Part shown: positions 12,205 to 64,000 of the stretch, one piece after another
How the letters are laid out: the number at the start of each line of letters is the position of its first letter
Position numbering within the stretch: the stretch's first letter is position 1
NCBI GenBank assembly: GCA_024231025.1
Contig: JAAEQW010000341.1
Span: 54,155 to 118,154, forward strand
Direction: 5' to 3'
DNA: 64,000 nt
DNA from: Candidatus Omnitrophota bacterium
GTDB taxonomy: Bacteria; Omnitrophota; Gorgyraeia; Duberdicusellales; 4484-171
Notes under the pieces: generated by a model
The model's input: the letters and a program-made list of their open reading frames with translations, nothing else
What the model was told of the DNA's origin: nothing
Database searches by the model: none
Position numbers and translations under genes: made by a program

Positions 12205-12280
12205 TAAAAGGTAAAATTCTTTACCCTATCAAAAGCTACTCTACATTTAAATACAGACGAATTAGAAAGCTACTCCTATC
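12205..12280. repeat. repeated intergenic element, copy b
   Basis: See 11396..11475. Confidence 0.6.
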
Positions 12281-25140: not shown

Positions 25141-25152
25141 ATCTTTTAAGAA

Positions 25153-25190
25153 TTACAAGATACAAATTACAAGATACAAATCACAAACAA
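25153..25190. repeat. direct repeat copy 2 (see 24284..24321)
   Basis: Sequence identity read directly. Confidence 0.7.
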
Positions 25191-25300
25191 ATCCCAATAT
25201 CCAATACTCAATAATCAAACAGTTTGGTTATTTGAATTTGGTGATTGATTATTATTTGGTTATTGCATCTTATATCTTGGTTATTGATTACTCGTGTCTA

Positions 25301-42926: not shown

Positions 42927-43006
42927 ATGTACACCGCGTAGGTGTACATAATTTTGTGAGTTATTTCAAAGGAAACCCGTGTACACCGCGTAGGTGTACA
43001 CGGGTT
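42927..43006. terminator. two tandem palindromic hairpins (GTACACC-gcgta-GGTGTAC at 42927..42947; 15-bp stem AAACCCGTGTACACC/GGTGTACACGGGTTT at 42972..43006); bidirectional terminator between convergent genes
   Basis: Perfect palindromes read directly. Confidence 0.6.
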
Positions 43007-43012: not shown

Positions 43013-43636
43013 TTATTTAGGGGTTGTAGTGGGTTCGGTATTAGCCTCTGCAGCCGACAAAGCACCGGATGCGTCGATTTCTCCGTCAAAGTCGCTGTCT
43101 TTTTCATAACGGACGGCAATACCATTTTCGTAAAAATGAACTATGTCAAAAATACCATCAAAGTTGCTATCGATACCGGATCGAGAAATACGGTTATTTT
43201 CGAAATTACTTCTTAGGTATAATTTACCGTTGTTGGCATAAAGCTCGCCAAAAATAAGTGTTTTATCTTTGGTATACATAAAAGCGTTTTGATATTCTTC
43301 TTTTTTAGCTCCGCTTACCGACAACGTCGCCTGCTTAAGTACTTCTTCACCGGCAATCTTGATTATCTCCCCTTTATCGTAAGTTGCTTCTGTTGTTTTC
43401 CCATCAAGAAGCGTAATCATCTTATCTAATGAACCATCATCGTTCCAATGCAAAGAAATGGTATAGTTGCCTTTTTCATCATACTGAATTTTTTCCACGT
43501 TGCCCTTGGCCTCGACCTTTGATTTTCCCTTGGGTTTGTCTTTAGGCTTGTCTTTGGAACCGCATGAAATAAAAGTTAAAAAATAAACAGCCACCACCAA
43601 AACAATTGCTACACTTTTAATTTTACCTGTTTTCAT
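43013..43636 (-). CDS. hypothetical lipoprotein, immediately downstream of (likely co-transcribed with) the giant gene
   Basis: MKTGKIKSVAIVLVVAVYFLTFISCG lipobox; 28-nt gap to the giant ORF. Confidence 0.55.
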   Translation of the reverse strand: MKTGKIKSVAIVLVVAVYFLTFISCGSKDKPKDKPKGKSKVEAKGNVEKIQYDEKGNYTISLHWNDDGSLDKMITLLDGKTTEATYDKGEIIKIAGEEVLKQATLSVSGAKKEEYQNAFMYTKDKTLIFGELYANNGKLYLRSNFENNRISRSGIDSNFDGIFDIVHFYENGIAVRYEKDSDFDGEIDASGALSAAEANTEPTTTPK

Positions 43637-43664: not shown

Positions 43665-46600
43665 CTACTTTTCACTATCCTTCTTAATCGAATCATAAAC
43701 ATCTTCATCGATAGTACCAGATTTTCCGTCTCCACTCAATGGATGGTAGAAAAATATTGATGGCGGAGCAACCGGTGCCCCAATTTGAGGCATAGTTTGT
43801 GAAAGCGGCGGCAACTGTACCGCCGGCACTGTTGGCAATGTCGCTGGAGCATCCATTACAACATCTGGCACAACTTCCAAAGCAGCCGGCACTGGTGTTT
43901 GTATCAATGGAATATCGATCATAATTTCGGGTTTAACATCTAAATTTACAGGAGGCATCGGTGGAATGATCGGTATGATTTCCACTTCAGGAACAACTGC
44001 AGGAGGTGTTAACTTATCCCTAAGCATATCGATTAAGCTTGGCTTAGATGGTTTTGCTTTTCTCTCTTTCTCTAACTCTTTTTCAAGCGGCGGTAGAATG
44101 ATTTGATTTGCACTCTTGATTTCTGCTAAAGCAGCAACTTCTCGACTGGCAATTAGCTCATCATCAAGATAATCTTTAGCAGCCGCTGCTTTTTCTATCT
44201 GATTATCATCGAAAAGCTTACGACTAGCAGAATCAATATCCTGCCAAGAAAAATCAGCGTTAACGCCTTTCACCAATAGAGCCGGGCTATAATTGCGTAA
44301 CTGCAATCTTGCCCCTTTAGCGGCCCAAAGATCATTAATTCTCATGTTACCGCTTGCTGCCAAAACAGCAACGATACCTCCATAGGATATAACAAAATCG
44401 GCGATGAAGTCATCAAACACTTCTTCAACCCAAATATCGCCAAAGGCTCTAATGTTAAATTTGTAACTACCTGCAATAATTCGATTATTCTGCGAACCAA
44501 CGCCTCCATTAATCGCGCTGAGATTGATCACATTACCAATTAAATTTATCCCCAAAGGATTACCGTTAATCAACGAACCATCAATAATCATATTAACATC
44601 ACCGATTTCTGATCGGATCTGGTTGATAATCATATCTCCGTTAACCTCATTTAAATTAATTCCTAAATAAGCTTGCGCGTCGACAACGCCGGTTGTGTTT
44701 AAATCTAAGTAGTTAGCAGTCTGCCCTATTTGACCGGTATTCGCGATCAAATTAACATGGTTAGAATTAATGTTGCTTGTTTGCGTATTGTCGGCATCGA
44801 AAATTGACCATGATGCATCCAAGTTAGTTGTGCCAAGTAAAGTGTTGATCGTGCCAAGATTAATGTTTCCGGCTAAAGTTTTAACGCTCACATCACCTTG
44901 ATCGGCAGTAACCACTCCGGCATTAAAATCACCATCGGTAACAAGTAGATTTATATTACCGGTAATCGTGCGCAAATTGCCTACGTTCATTTCACCGATT
45001 GTTTCGTTTAAGAACATGTCACCATAGGAATAAGCATTAATTAATCCTTTGGTAGCATTCGATGAATCAAAATCAAAATAATTATCACTACTTCCAATTT
45101 GCCCATTGGTTGCGGTTAAGTTGATATTGATTGCGTTAATGTTGCTACTATCGCTATTGAGTAAATCATTTATGCTATTGTAAGCAGTAATTGTAGTTGT
45201 GCCTTGTGTTGAGTTGATCAGACCAACATTTACATCCGCATTTTCACCGATCAAATTAACATTTCCGTTAAGTGATGTAATTGTGTCAACATTCATGTCG
45301 CCGTCAACCTCGCGAATGTATGCATTCTGGCTGACTTGCGCGCTTAATAATCCACCTAGAGTATCGACATCTAAATAATTGCCCTCTGCTCCTACATTAT
45401 CGCTGGCAATTAAGCTTATGTTGAAAGCATTAATGTTAGAGACATCACTATTGAGGCTGTCGACAATCGAGCCAAAAGCAGATAACACAACATCATCACT
45501 TGCAAAAATATGATCCACAAGCAAGTCATTTAATGACGTAATGTATACATTCTCAGAAGAGTTAACGCTTAGCCCATGACTTCCCCACAATTCAATTTCT
45601 AAAGGATTAGAAATAGATCCAATCGAAGCAACAACGCTAGTAAAAAACAAATCCCTTGCCCTAATGTCTACCGTTGCATCATTGGCATGATCAAAAATAC
45701 TTCCAACCGATGATAAATAAACATCGCCGCCTGTTGACTCAATATAGCCGATATCCATGTTGTCAATTGCTTCATTAATGTGAATATCTCCCGGTGCGTT
45801 AGCATTAACTAAACAACCAACATCAAAGAAATCATCAAAAGTACCAATCACTCCGTTTTGAGCATTCAGGTTGACTACTCCGGCAACAGCATTTGCGCCA
45901 CTGCCTGCGCTATTATCAAAAATTGAACCAAGAGCATCAATAATTGCCTGACCATTAGTCACAAAAATATTGTTAATATACGCATCACCATCAGGTGCAA
46001 AAACTTCTGCATCGCCGTCTTCAGTAACTTTAATGTCATCAACTTTTAAATTTCCAGCAGTTTCAAGCAAGTAGACACCGTTTTCGGCAGCAGTGTGGAC
46101 TTCGCCTAAAGATAAGGTATCAATTTCAAGGAAATTATCTTTTAGCCCAACTGTTCCTTTCTGAGAATCGTTAGCTTGTACCGTTACAAAAGATAAGTAC
46201 TGACCGGTAATACCTGCTGCTTCGTCCGCATCACCATCTAAAATTGAAGCGTAAGCATCAAGGCTTACATCGCCCAGTAGAGTATAAATTCCTCCACCAA
46301 GAGAATGAACAACAATATCAAGATTACTTTGTAAATTAATATTGCCTCCGGCAATTAAGCTTCCGGTATGAAGATTATGTTGTGGACTAGCAACAAAGAT
46401 ATCTCCACCAACATCGCCACTTAACAATCCTGTAGCATCAAGCCCAACATCTAAAAACTGCCCTGCGCCTGACCCACCAACATCGCCTGGGGCCTTTAAG
46501 TAAAGACTCTCGGCTCTTACATCTAGGCCGCCGGTTTGTAGCGCATCAAAAATTGAATTTGAGGAATCAAGGCTAATGTGTTTTACAGCATATAAACTAT

Positions 46601-49600
46601 CAACTAAGATGTCTCCCGTGTTTTCCTTAATAAAAATACTATCGCCTGCGCGAGCAGTCAGCTCACCGCTAAGATCAATTAACAGCTCATCACCTAGCCC
46701 AGTGCCAACGCTATTATCAGCTGCCTCTAAGATTGTATCACCGCTAATTAAGCTAACGCCGCTTAAAGCCTGGCTAATACCTTTGGCTACTTTAATTCTG
46801 GTGTCTGCAGTACCAGCATCAATCATTCCAAGTTTTAGAGAGCCTTCGCTGCCAAGATAGATATTATTGTTATTAGATGAAGCGCTAACTACTCCTCTAG
46901 CTTCAATGTCAACATCATCACGTAACTGGATAGTTATTGACTCTGAACTCTGACTAAGAATATCCTTGCGCTCTGCAGCCATCAAGATAAGAATCTTATC
47001 TAAAATTGCTTTCTCTTCTGGAACGCTTTCGTCCAATTCCGACCAAGGCTTTTGTCTAAGCTCAGCAATAGTTATTGTTACCGCGTCTAAATCTTTACCA
47101 ATCATGCCATTAGCAAGTAAGCCAACATCTGTACCGATAACATTTGGATCTTCGATGCGCACTTCAGTGTCTGAAGTTTCCTTTAAAATACCAACACCAA
47201 GTGAATTTTCGAGCTGATCCTTGGTCCATGAATAACCATCAGTTAACCTGTTCCAATCATCTGAGCCTTCGGCAATATCATAAGTCCATCCAGCATCATA
47301 AATATCACCTTGACTACCATAAGTTAAGTGAAGCGCGTGATACTCTGCGGTTCTCTTATCTTCTAAATCGGTCATCTGCACTTGAGTCCAGCTCATATCA
47401 GTATAATGAGTGACTTCAGCATCAGTTAACTCAACCCTAAAACTTGCTTTATAAACGGAAGGATCATCTTGTGCGTTACGGTATCTCCAGTAAGTAGTGT
47501 ACTGGCGCTCTCTTAGCCTTTCGTAAGCATCAACCGTACGCTGCGCGCTATCGCGAGCTTTGGTGCTATCGTCATCATCACGCAATTCCATCTCTTCCCA
47601 AAGATTAAGCAATGCGGCTTTGGTTCTTTCATCAACCGTTTCAACGCTATTATTATCAATAATCGCAGCCGGTGCATCAATTGCAACATTTCCACCTAAA
47701 GACTCAGCTTTAATCAAGTAGAGATCACCACTTATCTCCTGAATATACATATCCCCAGCTGAGGTAGCATGCAATCCACCATTCTCCGATGAAGCACTGT
47801 CGACACGCGCTACATTTAAAGCTGATCCAACGTCGCCATGGCTAGACACAATACCAACCTTGTTGCCTTTAATAAGGTGGCCCGCTCCGCTACCAACAAT
47901 ATCGGTATCCGCTGAAACTAACACATCACCTGTCGTAGTAATTGAAGAATAACGCAAGTCACCCGAAGGAGCATGAACGCGAATATCCCCACTGGCTGAC
48001 AAAGCTTGGAGTTGACCATTATTAACAAAACTAATATTGACTGGTGCCTCAATTATTCCATGCTCTAAATCCTCTATAACACCAATGCCGGTTTGTGCAT
48101 TCAAATTGACTGCATCTGCAGTTATACCTGCATACTCATCTAAACCTTGAGTAATATTTGCACCAGTTGTGATGTTAATCGCTCCGGAGCTATTTTTAAT
48201 TGGACCATCAACAATAACTCCAGCATTAGAGGTAACATTAATTAAACCGCTAGTGTAACCCATAAAATTAATATTAATTGGATTAGAAGCCTTGATGTTA
48301 AAATTATGCAAAATTGTTTCAGTTGCATAACGCTTGTAATTTTCATGATCCTTAATGTAAAGTACCGCCATTACGTCCATATGCCATCCACTATTCCAAT
48401 ACCAAGGAGTCTTGGTTAAATAGTATGAGCGATCGTACCAGAATGTTTCATTGTGACCGGGCGCAACCCGCAAGGTATCTGCGCCAATTGGAGTTGTCGG
48501 TTGACGCGTAGTAGCAGTAACCCCTCCCCAATGATAGTCAGTTCCGGCATTAATACCAAAAACACGATGACGATATCTGGTTTGCCATTCGGTCCAAGTT
48601 GCTCGATCACGCAACGTCCAAGAATAGTACTGATTTGCTCTTGGATTATATTGAGTAGCTTTAGAGCCCCAAGCTGTAATAATGCCATTATCCAAATCTA
48701 AAATGCCTGTGGCATTATTGTTAGTAAACTCTATGATGTTCCCGTTAATTCGTTTAATTAAAGTAATCAACGGATCACCGGAAATTGATTTTTTAGCTAA
48801 ATCAGTAATTTTAACCGTTCCCTCAATACCGTTACCCGTGTTAAGCGAACGTAACCTTATGCCATAGTTTGATGGATTAGTAATATTAATCCGACCGTAA
48901 CCATCCATAATTTTTAGCTCACCAACAGCAGTATTCATAATGTTACCAAAAAGCTCCATATACCCACCCATGATCTCACCAACGCCTAATTCAAAACACT
49001 GATTTTGCGCGTCAAAGAAAAGCGGTATATTAGCCATATCTTCGGTTCCGGCTTTTTTATAAGTAGCAAGCGGAACCTCATAAAGAGCATTAGTGCCTGG
49101 AGTCCATGTGCTTAAAAAGTTCTGCGCCGCAGCGATTGCAGCCGGTGTAATGTGAAGCATCTTATCCTGAACACCGCTTTGAATGATGCCATTAATGTTA
49201 AGGTATTCACCGGCAATAAAAACCATATTTCCGGCAATTACCGATGGCTCACTAGCAAAATCGGTGTTAATCAAAGTTGCTGGAAGACCCCAATGGGTTA
49301 CATCATAACCACCATTATAGGCTGAATTAATAATCGCATCCCAATGAGTCTTAATATCTCCGGCGATATTCTTAAATCCATCGCTATAGCCAATAAACAC
49401 ATTACGTCCAGCCTTAATGCGAATAATATCGGCAATAATGTCTACACCTTGTTTCACCTGAACACTACCATAGCGGCTATTAATATTAATCTCTCCATTT
49501 AAATTGCGAATATCACCATCAACAAAAATGTCCGGCGCGCGCATACCATAAGGAGCTGCACGAGTGTTCAAAACAGAAATCAGCGGTGTTGAGTCGGAAG

Positions 49601-52600
49601 AAGTTTCAATGTAGCCAAAATTAGCGACTCCACCCATATTGCGTTTGTTAATGTCATTATTCGTCTTGACTTTCGCATTGTTATAAAAAATGTCTCCACC
49701 TTGTTCATCAGGAATTGTCATCTTATTTGTACGCAAACAATTCATGCTCTCGTTTTTAATTTCGATTAAAGTATCACCAGGGGCAATCAACTGACCCGCC
49801 AAAGATGACGTTAAAGAATTAGTTTTGATGTAGATATTACTTGATTTTGCGGTAATTTCTTGATCAACCTTCATTACGCCAATATTTGCGCTGCCGCCAA
49901 GATCAGAAAGCTGTGCTTCCAGCATTGATTTTTCAGCTCGATACTTTGCCAATAGGCCTCTTAAGTCATCAGTATCATTAGTATCTGGAATCAATTGCGA
50001 CTCCAAATCAATAATCTCGGCGTTAAGCTCAATGATACGAGTATTGATGTTCGAAATAGATGTGGCATAAACTCCAATCAATGTTGTATTTTCATCAATA
50101 TCACTTTGCAATAGAACATTGTCATCAGTAAAATCCTTGTTTTGATCAGTTAAAGTTTTATTTTCATCTTGCAAGTCAACAATTTCATCATTGATCTCCT
50201 TGATCCTAGCCTTATCGTCTTTAGGGTCAAGGCCCGCTAATTCGGTTTGCAAGCCACTTATTGTTTGGTCGTTAGTGGAAATTGTTGTTTTATTAGTGTT
50301 GATTGTATTCTTATTGGCAGTAATTGTGTTATTCTTAGTTGTGTTATCATTTGTTAAATTAGTCTTCTTTGTTGTCTCATCGTCCCTTTGACTCTCTTTG
50401 TTAGTCTTTTCGGTTTCTAAACCGCTAATTTGATTAGCCACATCACCATTAGCATAGTTGCTAGGGGTGCCACTATCAACCTGATCTTTAATCGCATTAA
50501 TCAAAGCATCTAAGGTATCGATGCGTCCTTGAATATCATTAGGTAGGTTCTCGCTGTTTAGTGTAACTGAGATTCCATCGCTAGTGTTAGTTTCATCAAC
50601 TGTGCCATCATTGTTAATGTAAAGCTTTTTGACGTTTTCAATACCGACTTCAACTTTACCATCAATATTAATTGACGTTTTTGATATATCAGTTGAAGAA
50701 CCAGCCTTAATGTCTAACGACACATCTCCTCCGCCAACAAGATTACTAAAGAATGATCCGATTGCGGCTAAAACTTCACGATAAAGATCTTTTCCTACAC
50801 CATAACCTTTTACACTAGTGCTTCCTCTCTCGGTAAATAAACGAATATGACCAACACTTCTAAGGTCAGCACCGGAACCAATGTTAATGCTAGCTGCCTG
50901 ATCAACGCGTGCGTCAGCATCAGGTTTAGTCTCAACCGGAAACGCGGTTTTATTCCAGAGATCAGTATTGGCAAAAACATCAAAATCATTAACTGCGCCA
51001 TTATAATTTTGCCCAGTCATAAGGTTAATATCACCTTTACTCAAGATTAATGTGCCCGCTCCGATGCTAATCGCATTTCTAACAATCGTAGTTGATACAG
51101 AAGCACCTTGCGCCGCACCTGCCGCACCATAAGTTTTGACATTAACATTAGTTGAGATCGCAGCTTTTGTGCGCAGGGAGATATCAACATCGCCGATGCT
51201 TTCAAGACTTGAACCGCTACCAATACTAATTGTAGAATTATTCTTAGGATTATTAATGATTGATACCGCTTTTGCAATTGCAACCGCTCCTCCACAATCA
51301 AGTTTAACTTTATCGTACATGTCTGAGTAGTTAAATGCGCTTAATCTAATTGTTCCTGGATTAGATGGATCACCGAGCACTCTAATTATACTGTTATCAC
51401 CAATTGTGATATTAGTATCACCAAACACAGTTGATCCACTTTGCGCGGCAGCCCCACCAACAAATCCGCCAGCACCAGAATTGATGTTATATCCAATATT
51501 ATTTTTAAACATGTAGTTAGACGCGTCCATCTTAAAATCTAAAGATGTGATATTAGCATCTGCACCGAGGGTAGCATTAACGTCACTCGAGACATAATTA
51601 TTTGCCCAAGCACCACTCAAATTCAAAACTGCGGCACTTACGCTGTCGGCTTTAGAATTAAAGTTGGTTGAATGGCTAGCGTTAACTTTAACTTGCTTCA
51701 TGGTGTTACCGATGACATTACTACCAACCTTCGCTTCGGTATTAGCAATTGTCTGTGTTGCACTATCTGCAGCCTTTAGACCAACATTAATCACGCCACC
51801 AGAACCGGACTGGGCCTGTGCGTAATTCAAATCACTACCAATAGCCACAACTTCAAGGTCTCCTCCGATAAAAGTAACTGTATCGGCGACTGTTGCTTTA
51901 ATTGTGTTGTTAGAATTAGCCCGAGTCTTGTTGACACCAACAGCAATAATTCCTCCGTTCTTACCAGAAACATAAGCTTTCTGACTAGTAGTTGAATTGG
52001 CCGCAACTTTAGTTTTTCCTGAAACACCAATGTTAGTGCTTCCGCCAATCTGACTGCTAACTCTTGCTGTATTGTCAGCTAAACTTTCAGTACCTACTCC
52101 GCCTAAAAGCAAACCGCCGGATGCAGCCTTTGTTGTTGCATACGCCGCGTAGCTTTGTCCCGACTGTAATTTTTGCTCGGCAGTAACTGATAAGTTAGCA
52201 GCATTAATAAAGCTATTTGCTCCTGTGTAGGCAGTTACAATTGAGCTTATTCTAGCCTCGGCTAAAGAAATACCGACTGAACCAAGAATTGAAATCGCCA
52301 GTGCACCGCTTGATACATATGCGCGCGGATCAGTTGTTGCTAAAACTACGATATCATTAGCAGTTAAAATGTTTGCGTTATTACCAATGTAAGCTGAAAC
52401 TGTTGACGAAATAAGTGCCTCGCTGTCTGAACCTGATCCGGAAATTATTCCCGCGGCTCCGGCAGTTGTTTTAACAGTTGCAGTCTCGGTTGCATCGGCT
52501 CTTATATTCAAGCCGTTAACAGCTTTGCCGACGTCACGGCCAATGCGTGAATTATTTTCAACGCTAGCCTGTGTTTGACCATCAATGTTAACTTTTGCTA

Positions 52601-55600: not shown

Positions 55601-58600
55601 CGAAACTATTTGACCCAATTTTCGCTGTAACAGAATTTCGAATTACATTTACATTTAAAGCAGCGCCGGCTCCAACCGCCAATGCACCACCAACCGAACC
55701 AACGATCGAAGCAATCGTTGCGGTATCGCTGGCAGTAACTTTTACATCAGTACCGGCAATGTTCTGATTAATTTTAGTATTGTTGCCAATTTCAGCCTGA
55801 GTTGTTGATTTTAAAACATTAACATTAATTGAACCGGACACACCAGCGGCACCCGCAAGACCGGCACCAATTGAACTACTGGTAATTCCAGCCTCTGAAA
55901 TTGCTGATACATGAGTTGTACCTGCCGCGTCAGTTTGAGCATAATCACCAATGTAAGCACGAGTTGTATTGGCAATAGTATTAACGCCAATTGAACCAGA
56001 CACCCCGGCAAAAACACTGGCGCAAAATGATGCAGTAAGCAGCAAGACGTCCATTTCATCATAAGCGGCAACCATGATGTCGCGTCCGGCCATTAAATTT
56101 GCACGGCCCGCAACACCAGCTGAAGTATCGGCAACGCCAACATTAACTCCGATTGCTCCACCTACACCAGCATAAAGTCCACCGGCAATATTACCAACAA
56201 GTGAATTCATCCGTTCGCTCGATTGAGCTTTAATTATAATATCTTCTTTAGCATTAACTGTTGAATGTACTGGAACACCTGATTTTAAATCACGACCAAT
56301 ACGCGCATGTGTATTTTTAACTAAAACTACCGGCGTAATCCCTACTCCAACACCCGCTCCGGCAATACCAATCGCGATTGATCCATTTGCACCATAAATT
56401 CTAGTATGATCGGCTGCCATCAGCATTACACTCTGGTTAGCTGCAGCGGCACTGTTGTTACTATTAATCGCGACATTATTGCCAACAAGGGCATTAGTAT
56501 TATTAACGACTGTAGTTAAAGCACCGGATCCGCCAACGCCAGCGACCCCGGAACCAGAAATACCAACGATCCCGTTAATAACAGTTTCATTGGAAAGTGC
56601 GGTAATTGAAAGACCTTTAATTGTAGTTTTATCCTTGCGATTGCGCAAAGGTGTAAGTTCTGAGGCGTTAAAACTTTCAGCGATTGAATCCCAGGCATTA
56701 CCCGGATCATCTTTGCTGCTTTCGCCAAACTTACCGCTCCATTCATCATCGCCAGGCTTATAACCGGCATCATTGGCACCCGTAAGAGTGCCGACGTTAG
56801 CTAAGTAACCCGCCGCATGACCGCGAGCGTTAACAATTGAATTATCAGCAATCTCTGCGCTTGTATTTTTAACGATTGTATTAATATCAAGCGTTCCACC
56901 AACTGACGCGGTTGCCGAAATTCTCCCCGATCCCGCAACATTAGTCATAAATGTGTCATCTTCGGCTTCTAAAGCAACATTACCCTCGGAATCTACAGTC
57001 GCCCCTTCCTTTATATAGGCGTGGGTATTATTTACCATGGTATTTAAAACCAAAACCCCGCCTACCGCGGCGGCACCTGCACCTTGAAGACTCAACCCTC
57101 CACTGGTTATAATCTGATTATCATGAGCGCCAATAATGACATCGTCATTAGTGTAGACTTTCGCATCTTTACTAATATTTGCGTAAGTGCTATCAACAAC
57201 CGCATTGATTACTGCGGTTCCACCAACACCGGCAGCGCCCCCAGCACTTGCAGCCCCACCAACTGAAGCAATCATCAAATCATTATCTGCATCGACGACC
57301 AAAGAATCACCACGATCACTTTCTTTATTGATTTCGGTACGCTCGCCAACCTCTGCCAAAGTATTTAGGATAATTACATTCAAAGCTAATGAACCCATTA
57401 CCCCGGCAGTTCCTGCTCCACCGGCAGCAACGGTTGCAATAACATGATCTTGATCCGATGTGGCAATAACTTGCGCGTCGCCTTTGACATTAACTTCTGA
57501 GTCAGGCCCAATAACCGCGCGAGTATCACGATTAATAATGTTTAGCGCCATTGCACCACCTACTGCGGCCGCGCCTGCACCTTGAAGCGATCCTGAAACA
57601 ACAGTTGCGAATGTTTTGTCGTGTGCTTCAACTGATAGGTCTCCTCCAACATTAAACGTATTACCTCCGCCGATAAAAGCAGATGTATTACCCAAAGTAT
57701 CGGGACTTCCTGCACCTGATGATGTTTGGAAAAACTCTGAAACAGTAATTTGGCTGTTTTCGTCAACGAAATCTGAAACAGTATGTTCAATGCCTTCAGT
57801 GTCAATGAATGTTCTATTACCTTCTTCTCCGAGTTGGCCATCGGTTTTTGATTTTGCGCTATCGCTATCTAATTGTGAATTAGGGGTATTGGTCTTGTTG
57901 CCATCTTCATCCTTACTTGCCAGGGCATCATTTGCATCGGCATTATCCATTGCCTGGCCAATTGCAACTACCGCAACTGCTCCGCCTACTGCAGCAGTTC
58001 CCGCGCCGCCTCCGGCAATACCTAAAGAATGAACCGCGTTGTCACTCTCACCATAAATATCTACATCTCCACCAGCATCAGCTAATACACCTGACCCAGT
58101 ATTTGCGCTTGTCTTATTTAAAATTATTGTGATGTCCGCGGCCCCGCCGATTGCTGCAGTCGATGACGCAGCAACGCTGCCCATCGCACTCAATGTGTTA
58201 ACCTTATCAATAGCTTGAATTTTTATATCCTGACCAGTGATATTATCGCTTTCTCTAAATCCAGCACTCTGGTTAACTTTAGTTCCGCTGTCAATGCGGG
58301 CGATAGTATCGGCCTTAATTACTTTTACACCTAATGATCCAGCCACTGCGGCATTACCACCAACTGATACGCCGGCAGCAAATTGATCAATATCTTCTTG
58401 TGACTGAGCTTTTACTCTGGTTTCACCTTTTGCATCAGTTGTGTTATTAGTTCCAATTTGAGCTCTAGTTTCGTTAACCATTACAGCAACAGAAGCGGCC
58501 CCGCCAACTGCGGCGGTCTGTCCACCGGCGATAACCGCATCAAGCGTTAAAATTTCACTTTCGTTTACTGCGTCTAAAGTTAGATCGCCGCTATCAGCAA

Positions 58601-61600
58601 GAAGTGTCGCGTTATTTTTAGTGTAAGTCTTGGTATTAGAATTAACTACTGCAATTGATGCCGCACCCTGCACACCAACTTGACCACCACCAATACCAAC
58701 GACTAATGAATCAAGATTTTCTGAAGATTGACTGCGTAAATTAATATCTTTGAGCGCTTTAACAATTGAATTTTCACCAATAAAGCTTTCGGTATTCTTA
58801 ACGACTACGGTTGTTGTTGCCGCGCCACCAACTCCAGCGGTCTTCCCAATTGAAATTTGCCCAATGAAATCATTGGCATCGGTGTAATCATAAGCACCAA
58901 CTGCAACTGATTGATTTGCTCCGGCGCCAGTTAAGTCTTCATTAATTCGCGCATTATCACCAATGTACCCTTTGGTTGTATTTACAATAACATTGGCAGC
59001 TAATGCTCCAGCTACTGCAGCATTACCGCTAGCAGCACCAGCAGCTATAAAGTTTTCAATATCTTCAGTAGAAAATGCCTGAACTGACAAACCTCTTTGA
59101 CCTTCGGTGTACTTTTCTTGTAAATGAAGTTTGCCTAAATCTAAACTTATATCTGTACCATCAGGAAGCGCAAGTTTATCAGCACTTAGAAGATAGTCTT
59201 CCATTTCACCGGTCCAGATAGCACGCTCATCACCTAACCCGCGAGCTGTAACTTGTGCTCCGTTACCTATATATGCCTTAGTGTTTTTGACAATAGTATT
59301 AATTGCCATTGAACCACCAACACCCGCTTCTTTACCAAAAGCTCCGGCACCGGCAATGATGTTAAGATCAGTTTCACTTAACGCATTAACATCAATATTA
59401 CCATCAGCAAAAACTTGCGCATTATCGTCAATAAATGCATGGGTAATATCAGTATTAACCTTAATTGAACCAGCCCCCGCAACTCCTGCAGATTTACCAG
59501 CAGCAGCACCGACGACAACACTAACACCCTCTTCCTTAGTATGAGCGCGCACCTTTACATCCCCTGCCTTATTATTTGAATCAGCGGTAGATTTTACCTG
59601 AGCGCCCTTACCAATAATCGCGCGTACAATCTTTGTAAATACGCCAACATCAGCTGCGGCACCAACTCCCGCGCCATCTTTACTGGCAGCTGCTCCACCA
59701 CTTACAGCAACGACGATCGTGTCATCATCAGCTTCGACGTTAACTGACTGACCATCACCTTGATAAAGAAGATCCTGATTTATCAAAGCATTGCCACCGA
59801 TTTTAGCTTCAGTAACCGTAGTAATCACATTTGTATTTAGCGATCCTGCAACACCAGCTTTTCCGCCGTAAGCGCCTCCGGCAGCAATAGATACTATTAG
59901 CTCATCACCTTGGGCATTTACATTAATTGCTTTTTTAGCATTAACCTGGGCTGATTCACCAATGGCGGCTGTTGTAATATTTGAGATAACATTAGCATTT
60001 ATTGATCCGCCAACGCCGGCTTTTCCACCAACTGATCCAGCAAACGCAACATTCACTAAATCTGTATCAGCCTGTGCTTTTAAATCTACGTCGTCTCCCG
60101 CCTTCACCTTCGCATTATCACCAATTTTTGCTTCAGTTATTGCAGTTGAAACCAATATGTCTAATACGCCGGTAACTGATGTACCCTCTTGACTTCCACC
60201 GCCTGATCCACCACCTGAGCCGCCGCCTGATCCACCAGTCGAACCACCGCCAGTTGATCCACTTTCACCTTCTGAACCACCCTTGAGCGATCCCCATGAA
60301 AGACCAGCAGCAAGACCAATACTTGTCAGTAATTTTTTACTCAACGCATCAATATCAACATTATCATCAACCGTAACTTTAGCCCGATCATCTATGCGCG
60401 CCGATATTATATCGGTATTCACAATATCAGCGGTAGATACACCAACACTTACCTTATTAGATACTGCAGCCGCAGCTGCAAATGTTGCGGCATCTGTATC
60501 AGCGCTGGAAGAAACCTTAAGTTCTTTAGCGTTAACCGTTGCATCTTCACCAACGAAACTTTCAAAAATATTCTCAAAGACATTAATCGCAAACGAACCG
60601 CTGATTGCGGTTTCGGCCTGACTCTTTGATGCTGCTGCCGTACCTGATACAGCTTCAGTATAATAGTTGTGTGACCTTAAATAGTTAAGCGGATTAAGCG
60701 CCTCTAGCCACTCAGCGAATGTTGTTTTTGTGTTTGACGCTCCTGGATCAGCTTGAGCTGTTGCTTGAGGTGTAAGTCCTGGATCTTCACCCATTACAAT
60801 CTTCTTAGCAGATTCCAGAAAATCAAAATCTTTCCAGATAATCGTGCCATAGATAAGTGGATCAACCCTTAAGCTCTTCGATGCAATACTAACTACCCCC
60901 GCAACATCAATGAAGGAAAAATTTCCTGCATAAGCTCTAATCCGATTAAGCGCGTGCAGTATCGCAAAAGCAGCACCTACCCCAACCTTTGCTTCATCAC
61001 CGGAGACTGATGTTGTTGCCCATGCTTTAGATGAGATTTTACTCATATCTTGAGCGTTTATCGTAACGTTATTAGCATTTGTTATCCTGCCGTAATCTCC
61101 AACTCCAGCTTCAGTCTTATTAATTGCGTTAGTAACTGCGAGCGATCCTGCGATACCGATTTTATTAGATTTAGCTGCAGCTATACCTTCGGAAGTAAGA
61201 GTTGATATAAAGTCATCATGCAGGTTATGGGTTGAAGTTGCGTTCAATTCAACATCTGCTCCACCAGCATCAATCGATGAACCAGTTGCAACAAGGCGCG
61301 TCTTACCATTGACTTCTTCATAGTCGCCCATTATTGCAAGGGTGTCATTGGTCATATTAGTAATTGCAACGCCAACACCAATCGCTGTTCCTCCGGCTTC
61401 CTTTTTTTCTTCCGGGGTTGGTTTGCCATTTATAGTTTGTTCAAGTTTCTGATCAATCTGGGCCCAGATAACTTTGTGCGGCCCGACAATTGCTGATCCT
61501 GAACCAAGAGTCTTTGCGTTATTGTTAGCGGTAGCTTTAACACTTACTGGACCGCCGCTTACAACTTCTACATCTTTACCAATTTGAGCAATTGTATCAT

Positions 61601-63908
61601 TGTCGATCACATTAACACCAATTGCTCCAGCAAACGCAATGCTCCCCTTTCCTGACTTACCAGTATTACCTTTTTGATCAGCTAAAACTGATGTACTCTT
61701 TGCTTTAGATGTATCACCTTCACCGCTAATTACTTCGTCTTCAGTTTGACCAGACTTTTCAGCATACTTATCAGCGCTGGCACCACGCGCAGTTGCAACT
61801 GCCATGATTGTATTTTTAGATAGAGATTTGGCTTTTACATCCAGCTTTCCATCAGTTTTTAGATCACGTAATAATGCAGCCTTTGTAGTTGACACATCTA
61901 CACCAACCGCAACAACCGCTCCTGCAGCAACCTTACCGCCTGCAGCCCTACCACCAACTGATGTATTATTTGTAATCTCACTATCTGCGGTAATTGACAC
62001 ATTACCACGGGAAACCAGCTGACGGTCTAACTGTGTAGTGTAAGTTGCGTCAGGTTTTTCAACGATCGCTTCAGTATTATTTACTGCAACTAATACTGCA
62101 ACCGCGGCATCAAGTGCCGCATCGGTATCAGTACCTTTAGCTGCTGCGGCACCCGCCGTTGCAGCTGTAGTTGAGAAATAAAGTGAATCTGCGTCAACAT
62201 TAATGTTATCTGAATTTAAAATTTTTGCGTCTTTTGTAATCACAGCTTTAGCGGTATTAATTGTTGTATTGACTGCAACTGATGCACCAATACCAATCTT
62301 AAAGTTACTTGAATCACTCTGAGCTTCAGCTGCATCTTTATCGGCAACGCTAGTTTCATTAGTAAGTGACGGATTACTCTCATCAGTTGTGGGAGCCGGT
62401 GTTTCGGCAACTTTAAGTTTATCAATCTTAGTTATTGCTGAAGCTGTAGCATTACTGACAACATTGTTGCTAGCTTTGGCTCCTACATCACCGGTAGCAC
62501 TTACTTTTCCTGCCATAATTGCCTGATTATCACTCATCGCAACATTAACTGCTAATCCTCCAGCAATACCTATCTTTAATGCGCTTGCACCAGCAATTGC
62601 GCTGGCTGAGAAATCATTACTATTGTCTAAAACAGTGAGTGGAGCCCCTAAAAGATCGGTGGTTTCCTTTATATATTCTTTCATGCCCGCATCAACTAAA
62701 ACATCTCCACCGGCATTAATTACTGACTTACCAATCTCGGCTTTATTACTATTAATTACAGTATTTACCGCAACACCAACACCGATTCCGGTACCAGCTT
62801 GAACTGCGCTTCCATCACCACGAGCCTTTCCATCCTGGTTAGCACGAGTCTGCACTGTAACATCACCTGCTATGGCATCAACCACAAGACCGTCATTAAT
62901 CTTTGCAAGATTATCTGATAAGCTTACATTAACACCGGCACCAGCAGCAACACTTACCTGACCTTCATGAGTCTTTGCCTCTTCCGGCTTAACTGTTTTT
63001 TGTGCTGTTTTAGTAGTCTTGCCCTTACCAAAGGTTGACCACTTATCAACTAATCCATTGAAATCCTTAACCTTTCCGCCTTGTTTTTGATTGATTGGTC
63101 GCGTACCAGCGGCAGTTGCAACAGATGAAGCTTGTGCATCAGTCTGGCTATCAGATCTAACAAATACATCTCCTCCGCTAGTATTAACACTGCGGGCTAA
63201 AGTTGCCTTAGATGAATCAAGGGCAACGTTGACACCCATTGAAACACCAACCGCAGCTCCGGAACCCTTAGCATCACTACTAGCATCACTGATTGTTTGA
63301 GATGTATGATCAGATACAACTTTCACATCACCATCCATCGCCGATGTAGTTACCGCTCCGGTTCCTAAATAACTTTCAGTTTCATTTAAATATACTCCAA
63401 CTGCAATCGCAGCATCAATCGCAACACCAACATCTTGCTCGCCCGAGCCAGTTCCAGTACCGGTTCCAGTTCCACTACCTGTTCCACTGGTATTTGGATC
63501 TGGTTCTGGAGGCGGCGTTTGCCCGGTATCTCCTGAAGCTAGAGTTGATCCCGGTTTTTTGATTGGTTGCGGCTCATTAGTTCCAGCAAATGCTTTGACT
63601 TTTGAAATATGACGACTACTTGCTTTTAAATCGAATCCGCCTGCCTTTTCTATAACTACACCATCTTCAATGTGTGCTTTGTTAGTATTAACTCCTACAC
63701 CAACCGCAACCCCCGCACCAACACCAACGTGAAAATTTTTCTTAGGAGTCGTTGGAGCATTAGGGTCAGCTGGATCCTGTGCTGGCGGATTTTCTTCTTC
63801 CTGTTTATCTTCTTCTTCTTGTTGCTGCTGCTCTTCGCTTTGATCTAATGCATTAGCATCATCTACATTGTTCGCTTTTTTATTTGCTTTTTTCGCATCT
63901 TTAGCCAC
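43665..63908 (-). CDS. giant (6747 aa) repeat-rich, probably beta-helical surface/adhesin-like protein
   Basis: Uninterrupted 20,244-nt ORF. There are hundreds of degenerate repeats of the form (A)GVGGSxAxNxIxNxTxAxIGxxAxVxA. Low-complexity GSG/GTG/GGS runs are present. C-terminal third has a coiled-coil segment (QTISGLQTELAGL...) and a Pro-rich tail; N-terminus K/E/Q-rich with no obvious signal peptide. Confidence 0.85.
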   Translation of the reverse strand: MAKDAKKANKKANNVDDANALDQSEEQQQQEEEDKQEEENPPAQDPADPNAPTTPKKNFHVGVGAGVAVGVGVNTNKAHIEDGVVIEKAGGFDLKASSRHISKVKAFAGTNEPQPIKKPGSTLASGDTGQTPPPEPDPNTSGTGSGTGTGTGTGSGEQDVGVAIDAAIAVGVYLNETESYLGTGAVTTSAMDGDVKVVSDHTSQTISDASSDAKGSGAAVGVSMGVNVALDSSKATLARSVNTSGGDVFVRSDSQTDAQASSVATAAGTRPINQKQGGKVKDFNGLVDKWSTFGKGKTTKTAQKTVKPEEAKTHEGQVSVAAGAGVNVSLSDNLAKINDGLVVDAIAGDVTVQTRANQDGKARGDGSAVQAGTGIGVGVAVNTVINSNKAEIGKSVINAGGDVLVDAGMKEYIKETTDLLGAPLTVLDNSNDFSASAIAGASALKIGIAGGLAVNVAMSDNQAIMAGKVSATGDVGAKASNNVVSNATASAITKIDKLKVAETPAPTTDESNPSLTNETSVADKDAAEAQSDSSNFKIGIGASVAVNTTINTAKAVITKDAKILNSDNINVDADSLYFSTTAATAGAAAAKGTDTDAALDAAVAVLVAVNNTEAIVEKPDATYTTQLDRQLVSRGNVSITADSEITNNTSVGGRAAGGKVAAGAVVAVGVDVSTTKAALLRDLKTDGKLDVKAKSLSKNTIMAVATARGASADKYAEKSGQTEDEVISGEGDTSKAKSTSVLADQKGNTGKSGKGSIAFAGAIGVNVIDNDTIAQIGKDVEVVSGGPVSVKATANNNAKTLGSGSAIVGPHKVIWAQIDQKLEQTINGKPTPEEKKEAGGTAIGVGVAITNMTNDTLAIMGDYEEVNGKTRLVATGSSIDAGGADVELNATSTHNLHDDFISTLTSEGIAAAKSNKIGIAGSLAVTNAINKTEAGVGDYGRITNANNVTINAQDMSKISSKAWATTSVSGDEAKVGVGAAFAILHALNRIRAYAGNFSFIDVAGVVSIASKSLRVDPLIYGTIIWKDFDFLESAKKIVMGEDPGLTPQATAQADPGASNTKTTFAEWLEALNPLNYLRSHNYYTEAVSGTAAASKSQAETAISGSFAINVFENIFESFVGEDATVNAKELKVSSSADTDAATFAAAAAVSNKVSVGVSTADIVNTDIISARIDDRAKVTVDDNVDIDALSKKLLTSIGLAAGLSWGSLKGGSEGESGSTGGGSTGGSGGGSGGGSGGGSQEGTSVTGVLDILVSTAITEAKIGDNAKVKAGDDVDLKAQADTDLVNVAFAGSVGGKAGVGGSINANVISNITTAAIGESAQVNAKKAINVNAQGDELIVSIAAGGAYGGKAGVAGSLNTNVITTVTEAKIGGNALINQDLLYQGDGQSVNVEADDDTIVVAVSGGAAASKDGAGVGAAADVGVFTKIVRAIIGKGAQVKSTADSNNKAGDVKVRAHTKEEGVSVVVGAAAGKSAGVAGAGSIKVNTDITHAFIDDNAQVFADGNIDVNALSETDLNIIAGAGAFGKEAGVGGSMAINTIVKNTKAYIGNGAQVTARGLGDERAIWTGEMEDYLLSADKLALPDGTDISLDLGKLHLQEKYTEGQRGLSVQAFSTEDIENFIAAGAASGNAAVAGALAANVIVNTTKGYIGDNARINEDLTGAGANQSVAVGAYDYTDANDFIGQISIGKTAGVGGAATTTVVVKNTESFIGENSIVKALKDINLRSQSSENLDSLVVGIGGGQVGVQGAASIAVVNSNTKTYTKNNATLLADSGDLTLDAVNESEILTLDAVIAGGQTAAVGGAASVAVMVNETRAQIGTNNTTDAKGETRVKAQSQEDIDQFAAGVSVGGNAAVAGSLGVKVIKADTIARIDSGTKVNQSAGFRESDNITGQDIKIQAIDKVNTLSAMGSVAASSTAAIGGAADITIILNKTSANTGSGVLADAGGDVDIYGESDNAVHSLGIAGGGAGTAAVGGAVAVVAIGQAMDNADANDALASKDEDGNKTNTPNSQLDSDSAKSKTDGQLGEEGNRTFIDTEGIEHTVSDFVDENSQITVSEFFQTSSGAGSPDTLGNTSAFIGGGNTFNVGGDLSVEAHDKTFATVVSGSLQGAGAAAVGGAMALNIINRDTRAVIGPDSEVNVKGDAQVIATSDQDHVIATVAAGGAGTAGVMGSLALNVIILNTLAEVGERTEINKESDRGDSLVVDADNDLMIASVGGAASAGGAAGVGGTAVINAVVDSTYANISKDAKVYTNDDVIIGAHDNQIITSGGLSLQGAGAAAVGGVLVLNTMVNNTHAYIKEGATVDSEGNVALEAEDDTFMTNVAGSGRISATASVGGTLDINTIVKNTSAEIADNSIVNARGHAAGYLANVGTLTGANDAGYKPGDDEWSGKFGESSKDDPGNAWDSIAESFNASELTPLRNRKDKTTIKGLSITALSNETVINGIVGISGSGVAGVGGSGALTTVVNNTNALVGNNVAINSNNSAAAANQSVMLMAADHTRIYGANGSIAIGIAGAGVGVGITPVVLVKNTHARIGRDLKSGVPVHSTVNAKEDIIIKAQSSERMNSLVGNIAGGLYAGVGGAIGVNVGVADTSAGVAGRANLMAGRDIMVAAYDEMDVLLLTASFCASVFAGVSGSIGVNTIANTTRAYIGDYAQTDAAGTTHVSAISEAGITSSSIGAGLAGAAGVSGSINVNVLKSTTQAEIGNNTKINQNIAGTDVKVTASDTATIASIVGSVGGALAVGAGAALNVNVIRNSVTAKIGSNSFVDATGDILVDAASNKQLESYVGTAGIGAGAGLAGAVSVAVVGGPLNADAKGSLNDNIATTDEWSQYDVSEEQKGVGNEYQASTDMTNQNTAQQDRYKITDDINAQNSDAPVQAFIGVGAKVKAGNDLTVQARDNTKSQLFVGSLAGGMGGGFGASVGVNVVTNKVEAFIDDGAIVDVDGVLSVNAIEDEELVTGAGCLAVAGPGAANSGAIAVVVDTSQTLAHIDDADINQNTTTGKSNQSVIVSADSDSKIDTKIGAGAVAVGGGVGISSSTNVVAKKTLAYIASGANIGALHTIGVLANSYEDFNTFAVCLAAGLGGGLGGVISVNVLDNETDAGIGDADIESEGNVVVVASDEVDLNAVSGGASVGLGVGVGGTLNVNTIVNKTHAHIDDNAQVNALGRAGTYIPGTVKGLNVVAHSSQNIDVDTIGIGGAALAGVNASIQTTVVATETKATVGNSVTINSAGKDGVGDQNVKIKANDATVVDGNTESITGGFVSGGAAIDTVVIAKSVEASIGESIINANNNVDVESVSSSIIKSIAVGVAAGGFSVSGTIVIIDVIKDTIAAIGKAVIDAGGIGVRASDTTSVNSTAGSAGVGLAVGAAGTVNVTKVTGTTQASIADEAETDALGTTEVKAVSVANITKFIVSGALGGAAGVAGAVSVNLIKSITQAFIGTNAKINQKSSASNQHVNVQASDSANIGSSAGGVGGGLAAGAGVATDVNIIRSSAVASVGDEVKLHAGGNLTVNAASTKIVDSYTIAGGAGLAVGVGGAISVITIGGALDADTQEGIGDGKTASYADKDTSRDNNAMMDSSDSRHQKAKGIIEDKTSNVGVAGDMNNTSAAVLSATSASIGDQTTITTGGKVEVKAQDTVNAKTLTGAVAVGLGAGVGAGISVIGINQSTGASVGEYSTVDAIGNVDVIADTDETVNAKAFAGGGGFIGAGAAVAVVNDSAKTLATVGQYTNIKNANTINVHAFTDRSVVVESVGCAVGAIGVGASVAKVNIDGQTQASVENNSRIGRDVGKAVNGLNIRADATETATVKTTAGAAGIISGSGSDSEALISSTVSAYIGNNANILTANDIVVLATTDPRAYVSSGALAISILGSVGISLAEARISSIVTAYTGANSFINAANLSVTAEQKLQSGQSYAAYATTKAASGGLLLGGVGTESLADNTARVSSQIGGSTNIGVSGKTKVAANSTTSQKAYVSGKNGGIIAVGVNKTRANSNNTIKATVADTVTFIGGDLEVVAIGSDLNYAQAQSGSGGVINVGLKAADSATQTIANTEAKVGSNVIGNTMKQVKVNASHSTNFNSKADSVSAAVLNLSGAWANNYVSSDVNATLGADANITSLDFKMDASNYMFKNNIGYNINSGAGGFVGGAAAQSGSTVFGDTNITIGDNSIIRVLGDPSNPGTIRLSAFNYSDMYDKVKLDCGGAVAIAKAVSIINNPKNNSTISIGSGSSLESIGDVDISLRTKAAISTNVNVKTYGAAGAAQGASVSTTIVRNAISIGAGTLILSKGDINLMTGQNYNGAVNDFDVFANTDLWNKTAFPVETKPDADARVDQAASINIGSGADLRSVGHIRLFTERGSTSVKGYGVGKDLYREVLAAIGSFFSNLVGGGDVSLDIKAGSSTDISKTSINIDGKVEVGIENVKKLYINNDGTVDETNTSDGISVTLNSENLPNDIQGRIDTLDALINAIKDQVDSGTPSNYANGDVANQISGLETEKTNKESQRDDETTKKTNLTNDNTTKNNTITANKNTINTNKTTISTNDQTISGLQTELAGLDPKDDKARIKEINDEIVDLQDENKTLTDQNKDFTDDNVLLQSDIDENTTLIGVYATSISNINTRIIELNAEIIDLESQLIPDTNDTDDLRGLLAKYRAEKSMLEAQLSDLGGSANIGVMKVDQEITAKSSNIYIKTNSLTSSLAGQLIAPGDTLIEIKNESMNCLRTNKMTIPDEQGGDIFYNNAKVKTNNDINKRNMGGVANFGYIETSSDSTPLISVLNTRAAPYGMRAPDIFVDGDIRNLNGEININSRYGSVQVKQGVDIIADIIRIKAGRNVFIGYSDGFKNIAGDIKTHWDAIINSAYNGGYDVTHWGLPATLINTDFASEPSVIAGNMVFIAGEYLNINGIIQSGVQDKMLHITPAAIAAAQNFLSTWTPGTNALYEVPLATYKKAGTEDMANIPLFFDAQNQCFELGVGEIMGGYMELFGNIMNTAVGELKIMDGYGRINITNPSNYGIRLRSLNTGNGIEGTVKITDLAKKSISGDPLITLIKRINGNIIEFTNNNATGILDLDNGIITAWGSKATQYNPRANQYYSWTLRDRATWTEWQTRYRHRVFGINAGTDYHWGGVTATTRQPTTPIGADTLRVAPGHNETFWYDRSYYLTKTPWYWNSGWHMDVMAVLYIKDHENYKRYATETILHNFNIKASNPININFMGYTSGLINVTSNAGVIVDGPIKNSSGAINITTGANITQGLDEYAGITADAVNLNAQTGIGVIEDLEHGIIEAPVNISFVNNGQLQALSASGDIRVHAPSGDLRYSSITTTGDVLVSADTDIVGSGAGHLIKGNKVGIVSSHGDVGSALNVARVDSASSENGGLHATSAGDMYIQEISGDLYLIKAESLGGNVAIDAPAAIIDNNSVETVDERTKAALLNLWEEMELRDDDDSTKARDSAQRTVDAYERLRERQYTTYWRYRNAQDDPSVYKASFRVELTDAEVTHYTDMSWTQVQMTDLEDKRTAEYHALHLTYGSQGDIYDAGWTYDIAEGSDDWNRLTDGYSWTKDQLENSLGVGILKETSDTEVRIEDPNVIGTDVGLLANGMIGKDLDAVTITIAELRQKPWSELDESVPEEKAILDKILILMAAERKDILSQSSESITIQLRDDVDIEARGVVSASSNNNNIYLGSEGSLKLGMIDAGTADTRIKVAKGISQALSGVSLISGDTILEAADNSVGTGLGDELLIDLSGELTARAGDSIFIKENTGDILVDSLYAVKHISLDSSNSIFDALQTGGLDVRAESLYLKAPGDVGGSGAGQFLDVGLDATGLLSGDVGGDIFVASPQHNLHTGSLIAGGNINLQSNLDIVVHSLGGGIYTLLGDVSLDAYASILDGDADEAAGITGQYLSFVTVQANDSQKGTVGLKDNFLEIDTLSLGEVHTAAENGVYLLETAGNLKVDDIKVTEDGDAEVFAPDGDAYINNIFVTNGQAIIDALGSIFDNSAGSGANAVAGVVNLNAQNGVIGTFDDFFDVGCLVNANAPGDIHINEAIDNMDIGYIESTGGDVYLSSVGSIFDHANDATVDIRARDLFFTSVVASIGSISNPLEIELWGSHGLSVNSSENVYITSLNDLLVDHIFASDDVVLSAFGSIVDSLNSDVSNINAFNISLIASDNVGAEGNYLDVDTLGGLLSAQVSQNAYIREVDGDMNVDTITSLNGNVNLIGENADVNVGLINSTQGTTTITAYNSINDLLNSDSSNINAININLTATNGQIGSSDNYFDFDSSNATKGLINAYSYGDMFLNETIGEMNVGNLRTITGNINLLVTDGDFNAGVVTADQGDVSVKTLAGNINLGTINTLLGTTNLDASWSIFDADNTQTSNINSNHVNLIANTGQIGQTANYLDLNTTGVVDAQAYLGINLNEVNGDMIINQIRSEIGDVNMIIDGSLINGNPLGINLIGNVINLSAINGGVGSQNNRIIAGSYKFNIRAFGDIWVEEVFDDFIADFVISYGGIVAVLAASGNMRINDLWAAKGARLQLRNYSPALLVKGVNADFSWQDIDSASRKLFDDNQIEKAAAAKDYLDDELIASREVAALAEIKSANQIILPPLEKELEKERKAKPSKPSLIDMLRDKLTPPAVVPEVEIIPIIPPMPPVNLDVKPEIMIDIPLIQTPVPAALEVVPDVVMDAPATLPTVPAVQLPPLSQTMPQIGAPVAPPSIFFYHPLSGDGKSGTIDEDVYDSIKKDSEK

Positions 63909-64000
63909 TTTTAATGTAACTTTAGCACCAGCATGTGTTTTGTGTGTTGAGTTATTCTCTGAATGAACCTTAATTGCATCTTCACTCTCAACACTTTGCG

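Follow-up and report, generated by a model that had tools for sequence, protein, structure and literature searches.

The 64 000 nucleotide (nt) stretch of DNA analysed here, referred to below as the window, comprises positions 54,155 to 118,154 of contig JAAEQW010000341.1 (GenBank assembly GCA_024231025.1), which is part of a metagenome-assembled genome (MAG) assigned to Candidatus Omnitrophota. One end of the window is occupied by a giant gene on the minus strand, which is followed by a small gene for a putative lipoprotein. The gene is carried on the chromosome of an uncultured member of Omnitrophota. We consider it probable that it encodes the visible C-terminal part of a TpsA-like exoprotein of the leukotoxin LktA family, most likely exported by two-partner secretion (TPS). 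The features of the two genes are listed below, with residue numbers (amino acids, aa) counted from a GTG codon at 63908.

43665..63998, minus strand: giant gene, visible part; 6777 sense codons followed by a stop codon (43665-43667), with the 5' end past the window edge
51651..63725, minus strand: LktA-type tandem repeat array, ~58 copies, aa 62-4086; modal period 54 aa, with polar or Gly-rich interruptions
63448..63486, minus strand: DNA tandem repeat (6/18 nt) encoding a GTGSGTGTGTGTGSG linker, aa ~141-155
60195..60251, minus strand: DNA tandem repeat (12/24 nt) encoding a GGGS-type linker, aa ~1220-1238
approx. 57699-57956, 55269-55481 and 53064-53261: polar/acidic insertions in the array, aa ~1985-2070, 2810-2880 and 3550-3615
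50529..51551, minus strand: conserved post-repeat module, aa 4120-4460
49839..50531, minus strand: Asn/Thr/Asp-rich, Gly/Pro-poor segment, aa 4460-4690
48189..49841, minus strand: conserved core module, aa 4690-5240; beta-helix with an aromatic-rich beta-hairpin insertion (aa ~5090-5190)
47670..48140, minus strand: second repeat type, 2 copies (~76-100 aa), aa 5257-5413; modelled as beta-helix
46929..47651, minus strand: conserved acidic, helical linker module, aa 5420-5660
44358..46763, minus strand: second repeat type, ~10 copies, aa 5716-6517
43668..44321, minus strand: C-terminal tail, aa 6530-6747; Pro-rich at aa ~6604-6720
43013..43636, minus strand: putative lipoprotein gene, 207 aa, 28 nt after the giant gene stop and preceded by an AGGAG-type ribosome-binding site

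An earlier sequence-only reading of this stretch had reported an uninterrupted open reading frame (ORF) of 6747 aa at 43665..63908, and this ORF is present on the minus strand in both the ORF listing and the translation, with one terminal stop. However, the ORF had been taken as the whole gene. No in-frame stop occurs between 63909 and the edge of the window. The 30 codons preceding the GTG at 63908 can be aligned one to one with residues 827-856 in the interior of a relative, P0011 ('HKTHAGAKVTLKVAKDAKK' in the window and 'HKTYAGASVTMQVGKAGAK' in P0011), and the alignment runs straight across the putative start. Because the frame is open and these 30 codons are homologous to the interior of P0011, the GTG reads as an internal Val codon and not as a start, and 6747 aa is therefore a lower bound for the length of the protein. 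The K/E/Q-rich 'N-terminus' described previously is a linker within a longer protein, and the missing signal peptide is an artefact of truncation at the window edge. Using offsets in full-length relatives, ORF residue 161 corresponds to residue 937 of P0017, 758 of P0023 and 800 of P0034. In P0011, 826 residues come before the point that corresponds to the edge of the window, and the start of P0011 itself aligns at approximately residue 400-470 of relatives that carry a TPS domain. Together, these offsets and the P0011 alignment suggest that ~750-1,300 residues lie beyond the edge. The full-length protein is probably ~7,500-8,100 residues, of which at least 6777 are visible. We note, as a caution for scans made in windows, that an edge can create both an apparent start and an apparently missing signal peptide for a giant ORF.

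The coding signal of the giant gene is strongly periodic, with a GC content of 0.54, 0.45 and 0.30 at the first, second and third codon positions. The short plus strand ORFs within the gene (up to 203 aa) are antisense to this frame. The third-position value (GC3) of 0.30 compares with 0.29-0.38 for neighbouring genes, while the overall GC content is 43-46 % against 35-39 %. As the GC3 agrees with that of the neighbouring genes, the raised overall GC stems from the Gly/Ala/Val content of the protein and not from a foreign origin, and recent horizontal transfer was rejected as its source. An assembly artefact or pseudogene, namely a collapsed or chimeric repeat region posing as a single ORF, might be suspected for a repetitive protein encoded in a MAG. 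However, 20.3 kb is stop-free with strong periodicity, and the module order is collinear with that of independently assembled relatives. The repeats found at the DNA level do not exceed 75-88 % identity over <100 nt, and are thus too short and too diverged for repeat collapse, the misassembly that the sequence-only reading had been concerned about. We regard such an artefact as very improbable.

The protein belongs to the LktA-repeat family. The NCBIfam model NF012206 (LktA_tand_53, a 53-residue LktA tandem repeat) matches it with 571.3 bits (E 4e-176), where the curated cut-off is 50 bits, and there are 38 matching stretches in aa 1-3400 and a further 6 beyond. A hidden Markov model (HMM) built de novo from one unit recovered 58 confident units in aa 62-4086, with a modal spacing of 54 aa. 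Hence, the hundreds of ~20-residue repeats proposed previously are actually ~58 units of ~54 residues, and the two ~20-residue strands predicted for each unit (see below) probably explain the smaller figure. No Pfam family matched either half of the protein at E<=0.01. A profile comparison with FhaB/haemagglutinin, YadA and pectate lyase had been proposed as a check, and the Pfam models for these gave no match. FhaB/FHA-type haemagglutinin was rejected as an identity for the protein, as neither Fil_haemagg nor Fil_haemagg_2 repeats (~19-20 residues) were found. RTX, LPXTG-anchored and YadA-like adhesins were also rejected, as the GGxGxD and LPxTG motifs are absent and Pfam gave no match. The only true tandem repeats that Tandem Repeats Finder detected in the DNA of the gene are the two encoding Gly-rich linkers (60195..60251 and 63448..63486), and these account for the GSG/GTG linkers that had been attributed to such repeats.

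The LktA repeats are predicted, from a high-confidence model, to fold as a flattened two-sheet beta-solenoid. Six units (aa 3033-3368) were modelled with AlphaFold2 using an alignment of 26 non-overlapping segments, of which relatives supplied 25 and another part of the same protein supplied one. This gave a predicted local distance difference test (pLDDT) score of 92 and a predicted template modelling (pTM) score of 0.88. In the model, a unit consists of two ~20-residue strands, one short strand and a 2-residue connection flanked by a Gly/Ala-rich motif. By extension, the ~58 repeats would build a flattened right-handed beta-solenoid at one coil per repeat. The two ~20-residue strands of a coil would belong to two sheets that face each other, and would be joined at one edge by a 2-residue Gly/Ala-rich arc and at the other by the short third strand. 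Stacked at ~0.48 nm per coil, the array would make a plank ~30 nm long and 6-7 nm wide, broken up by the flexible Gly-rich linkers and by polar loops. The suggestion of a haemagglutinin-like beta-helix fibre therefore has to be divided. A beta-solenoid filament is predicted, and the models match the beta-helices of TpsA proteins (EtpA, HxuA, HMW1 and FHA), but the repeat is not of the FhaB type. Sequence searches of the PDB returned nothing meaningful, and no solved structure has sequence in common with the LktA repeats. Since the confident model is also consistent with an independent prediction in a recent preprint (see below), the repeat is a reasonable target for experimental structure determination.

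Polar or acidic insertions of 60-90 aa recur in the array. They follow a motif resembling 'V.V..IGG.LDAD', the next repeat resumes in mid-unit, and the same insertions are visible in array segments of relatives. They may loop out of the plank or serve as hinges in it.

C-terminal to the array, several modules are conserved in relatives. The post-repeat module was matched by local phmmer searches in P0017 (E 4e-95), and also in P0071, P0015, P0034 and P0054. The Asn/Thr/Asp-rich segment that follows is common to P0003 and P0006, and corresponds to what had been described as a Ser/Thr/Asn-rich coiled coil. Helical or coiled-coil structure at aa ~4490-4665 is possible, but the support for it is weak and consists of SMC/Rad50-like matches (E 6e-5) together with a crude heptad score of up to 0.75 at aa 4597-4660. 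The core module is 63 % identical to the fragment P0003 and 51 % identical to P0004. Within it, an aromatic-rich stretch (aa ~5090-5190, approx. 48339-48641), in which Trp and Tyr alternate with polar residues, is conserved in P0003, P0004 and P0017. This stretch was modelled at low confidence as very long beta-hairpins projecting from the core, and a role as a membrane- or ligand-contacting element would be speculative. The pair of second-type repeats that follows was found with a de novo HMM and lies in model blocks with pLDDT 83-94. The acidic linker module, for which a helix was modelled at the beginning, is found in 15 relatives (P0017, E 5e-55).

The remaining ~1100 residues are less conserved. 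The ~10 further copies of the second repeat (de novo HMM, E down to 1e-28; motif SIFD..N..SNINA.NI.L.A..G.IG) vary between relatives, with matches only in P0004 and P0007. The C-terminal tail (aa 6530-6747) had no phmmer match among 157 relatives and no NCBIfam match. It includes the Pro-rich region that had been predicted, with 25 Pro in the 120 residues of aa 6610-6729. A C-terminal ~1100 residues that is variable downstream of conserved modules, with a small gene directly after the giant gene, could recall contact-dependent toxin delivery of the CdiA type, with the variable part carrying an effector and the product of the small gene acting as an immunity or accessory protein; Burkholderia-type bcpAIOB operons do include an accessory lipoprotein, BcpO (PMC5422565). 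However, neither Pfam nor NCBIfam identified a toxin or pretoxin domain, and the neighbourhood of the C-terminus lacks a boundary of the pretoxin or VENN type, the sole VENN (aa 3783) being within a repeat. The variable region is itself beta-helical repeat and Pro-rich tail, and the downstream product looks exported, unlike a cytoplasmic immunity protein. Delivery of a toxin in this way is improbable.

The downstream product, which had also been called a lipoprotein, has a basic and then hydrophobic, signal-like N-terminus followed by Cys25. It has no Pfam match and looks like a lipoprotein, and its gene, 28 nt after the stop of the giant gene, is probably co-transcribed with the latter. Beyond it are convergent, unrelated genes, including one for a pyruvyl transferase. 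A palindromic hairpin with a 9-bp stem (42927-42949) lies between the convergent lipoprotein and pyruvyl-transferase genes and may be a bidirectional terminator, though such sites are no commoner here than in shuffled sequence.

The host had been guessed to belong to Omnitrophota, and this is borne out by the DnaX protein encoded in the window, which is 100 % identical to that of an NCBI MAG labelled 'Candidatus Omnitrophica', on a 119,650-bp contig; the next-best matches (~58 %) are also from Omnitrophota. Giant genes of two classes, the Archaeovorin and Dockerin types, have been described in this phylum. They encode many transmembrane regions and SecA-DEAD, dockerin or peptidase domains, and have type II-like secretion loci upstream and pilZ genes downstream (10.1101/2023.11.21.568195). 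Both the phylum and the great length of the gene would suit one of these classes. However, the visible 6777 aa include neither Pfam domains nor transmembrane-like segments, and on the downstream flank, the only one that the window covers, the genes are those for the lipoprotein and the pyruvyl transferase. In addition, neither TPS nor TPS domains are mentioned in the defining paper (10.1101/2023.11.21.568195), and TPS is likewise not mentioned in a 2026 survey of Omnitrophota. It is highly unlikely that the gene belongs to either class.

An exhaustive search with the N-terminal 1200 aa of the visible protein found 256 relatives, many of them 4,000-7,777 aa long. As more distant relatives of the core fill entire 21-kb loci (at least 7,100 aa each), giant size is normal for the family. 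The relative that is most informative for the secretion route is P0017 (6287 aa), in which the order of repeats, post-repeat module, core (E 1e-145) and linker is collinear with that in the window protein. An N-terminal TPS domain (PF05860) was found above the gathering score in six relatives, of which P0017, P0015, P0034 and P0071 have the post-repeat or core modules in common with the window protein, and P0020 and P0023 the linker module. P0004 (1318 aa) has a signal peptide and, as a precomputed Pfam hit, a TPS domain. NF012204, which is described as 'LktA family filamentous adhesin' and represents an FxxPxG/TPS-type N-terminal domain, matched P0017 (162 bits) and P0004 (141 bits). A TpsB gene (POTRA_2 and ShlB domains) is immediately 3' of the homologous gene in three independent loci, those of P0004, P0017 and L009. 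As the module-sharing relatives with scanned N-termini carry TPS domains and have adjacent TpsB genes, export of the protein in the window by a TpsB would be expected. The secretion route, which had been called unclear, only appeared so as a consequence of the N-terminus being outside the window.

Two of the loci call for comment. In L009 (DUPN01000116.1, 42-16345), which is from a MAG labelled 'Bacillota bacterium', the giant relative (at least 4758 aa) is followed by the TpsB gene and then by OmpH/Skp genes. Because TpsB and OmpH/Skp are outer-membrane features, either this organism is from a diderm lineage or the contig is misbinned. In L008 (ENA ERZ21869602 ctg60170l), same-strand ORFs of 94-211 aa come in succession after the P0011 gene, as though frameshifts in a long-read assembly had split up a giant gene.

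However, not all giants with LktA repeats have a TPS domain, and at least three N-terminal types were found. In P0008, P0012 and P0013, the N-terminus is not TPS-like and combines a Sec signal with an acidic region and a further beta-rich module, and in P0009 and P0030 it is LEPR-XLL-like ('LEPRVMLSAD' and 'LETRLFLS'). These five were assigned by local comparison with the TPS region of P0004 and by eye, not with Pfam. Hence, the LktA repeat array seems to be a module that is reused across secretion routes, and the protein in the window could be a surface protein with LktA repeats that never needs a TpsB and is exported via a Sec signal combined with another type of N-terminal module (P0008, P0012 and P0013 are examples), a LEPR-XLL-type route or a type I system. 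This would account for the lack of a TpsB gene downstream, and the N-terminus is outside the window. P0008 is also the top scorer against the N-terminal 1200 aa. Conversely, the C-terminal modules are all absent from P0008, P0012 and P0013, while all of the relatives listed above that do share them, and whose N-termini were scanned, have a TPS domain. A TpsB gene can also be upstream, as is lktB in the lktBAC operon (10.1101/534297). We therefore consider a route other than TPS unlikely.

Several points do weigh against two-partner secretion and the function proposed below. The TPS domain and signal peptide are seen in relatives and are not within the window. No TpsB gene is among the downstream genes, whereas one is directly downstream in 3/3 homologous loci; nor was a TpsB found among the large ORFs scanned in the window, the upstream side of the giant gene being beyond it. 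As detailed above, giants in which the N-terminus is of another type (P0008, P0012, P0013, P0009 and P0030) also have LktA repeats, and the function is assigned by analogy alone. With respect to the missing TpsB gene, Fusobacterium necrophorum LktA, from the lktBAC operon, is reported to be a substrate of a type Vb secretion system (T5bSS) (10.1101/534297), and because lktB precedes lktA there, an upstream TpsB gene is plausible for the gene in the window.

If two-partner secretion is the route, export would proceed according to the general TPS mechanism (reviewed in PMC5422565). At the N-terminus, beyond the window, there would be a Sec signal and a TPS/FxxPxG secretion domain. In an unfolded state, the chain would cross the inner membrane, be recognised by the POTRA domains of an Omp85-type TpsB transporter and be threaded through the TpsB barrel, folding stepwise outside the cell. 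Such a pathway presupposes an outer membrane, and Omnitrophota are diderm. Distal to the array would be the beta-helical core with its aromatic-rich hairpin insertion, then the second beta-helical repeat region and the Pro-rich tail. The product would be a cell-surface or released filament for contact with other cells or surfaces, and the downstream lipoprotein may be an accessory factor. The function is the least certain part of this proposal. By analogy, it may be contact or adhesion, and possibly cytolytic. Attached or predatory lifestyles have been reported for some Omnitrophota, and a contact filament would fit these.

It is conceivable, though doubtful, that the lack of a TpsB gene directly after the giant gene, the co-transcribed lipoprotein gene and the unique Pro-rich tail together mark a different way of holding or releasing the ~8,000-residue filament at the surface, for example via a C-terminus retained in the periplasm as in the FhaB prodomain, or via lipoprotein-assisted anchoring. 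If this were so, a very small cell with an epibiotic or predatory habit would use the two-sheet plank as its contact organ, and the protein would be among the largest type Vb substrates.

With the favoured assignment as an LktA-family TpsA-like exoprotein, an ORF that has no Pfam match gains a concrete identity that can be tested, and Omnitrophota, which are known for a distinct class of giant genes, would also carry giants of the two-partner-secretion type. No paper linking giant genes of Omnitrophota with TPS was found. Nothing here would surprise a specialist in type V secretion. The protein is very large but of an ordinary kind, and belongs to a known family that has not been discussed for this phylum.

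Elsewhere in the window, the region 224-23000 is a probable integrated mobile or defence island. The features recorded in it, and those between it and the pyruvyl-transferase gene, are as follows.

224-1129: Dam-type N6-adenine methyltransferase (island)
2033-3706: HATPase_c_3 protein (island)
3703-5061, minus strand: 452-aa ORF with two RNA-polymerase alpha C-terminal-domain-like repeats and a sigma-70 region 4 match
8756-10369 and 12262-13053: two ORFs resembling serine recombinases by N-terminal motif (island)
13222-14406: SIR2-like protein (island)
16131-16724 and 21734-22363: PADLOC candidate-system matches (island)
18742-19920, minus strand: 392-aa ORF with a family A DNA polymerase domain only (PF00476, E 2e-81) and no exonuclease part
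24544-26971, minus strand: recR-dnaX pair
27003-28634, minus strand: M48 peptidase fused to C-terminal TFIIB-type zinc ribbons

The domain combination of the 3703-5061 ORF, which is inside the island and adjoins the HATPase_c_3 gene, is unusual. The polymerase at 18742-19920 may be from a mobile element or phage, or may be a remnant.

Among known systems, the beta-solenoids of SufB/SufD and of the curli subunit CsgA have no sequence relationship to the protein described here (6-10 % identity over aligned residues). Their functions are unrelated, and the coils of the giant protein are far wider. The classical TpsA proteins (FHA/FhaB, HMW1, EtpA, HxuA and ShlA/HpmA) have in common with it a beta-helical passenger architecture; a beta-helical or solenoid passenger is present in the structure models of the window protein, and the best structural matches to the core model are EtpA, HxuA, HMW1, FHA and HpmA. 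The FhaB precursor also has a Pro-rich region near the C-terminus, a likeness in composition. However, the visible sequence has no match to the Pfam haemagglutinin repeat or TPS models, and the protein is much larger. The coils also differ, with ~19-20 residues and three faces in FHA against ~53 residues and two long faces here.

One of the closest counterparts is LktA of F. necrophorum, with which the 53-residue tandem repeat (NF012206) is shared, and the collinear relatives of the protein carry the LktA-family N-terminal domain (NF012204) and adjoin a TpsB gene. Nevertheless, a TpsB gene is not downstream in the window, and leukotoxic activity is not indicated. F. necrophorum LktA is 3241 aa, and the protein described here is more than twice as long. 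It may also differ from LktA in its additional modules at the C-terminus. LktA is from an animal pathogen, whereas the host here is an environmental Omnitrophota MAG.

Another counterpart is Cag_665, a 20,647-aa symbiosis protein of Chlorobium chlorochromatii, in which LktA-like repeats have been predicted to make up a 'laminated plate' of two layered beta-sheets and for which type I secretion has been proposed (10.64898/2026.03.19.712371). It differs in having a C-terminus of 12,000 aa that is a haemagglutinin-type parallel beta-helix. The repeats are alike by description, the two-layer picture agrees with the model obtained here, and Cag_665 is likewise a giant protein of a bacterium that lives attached to another cell.

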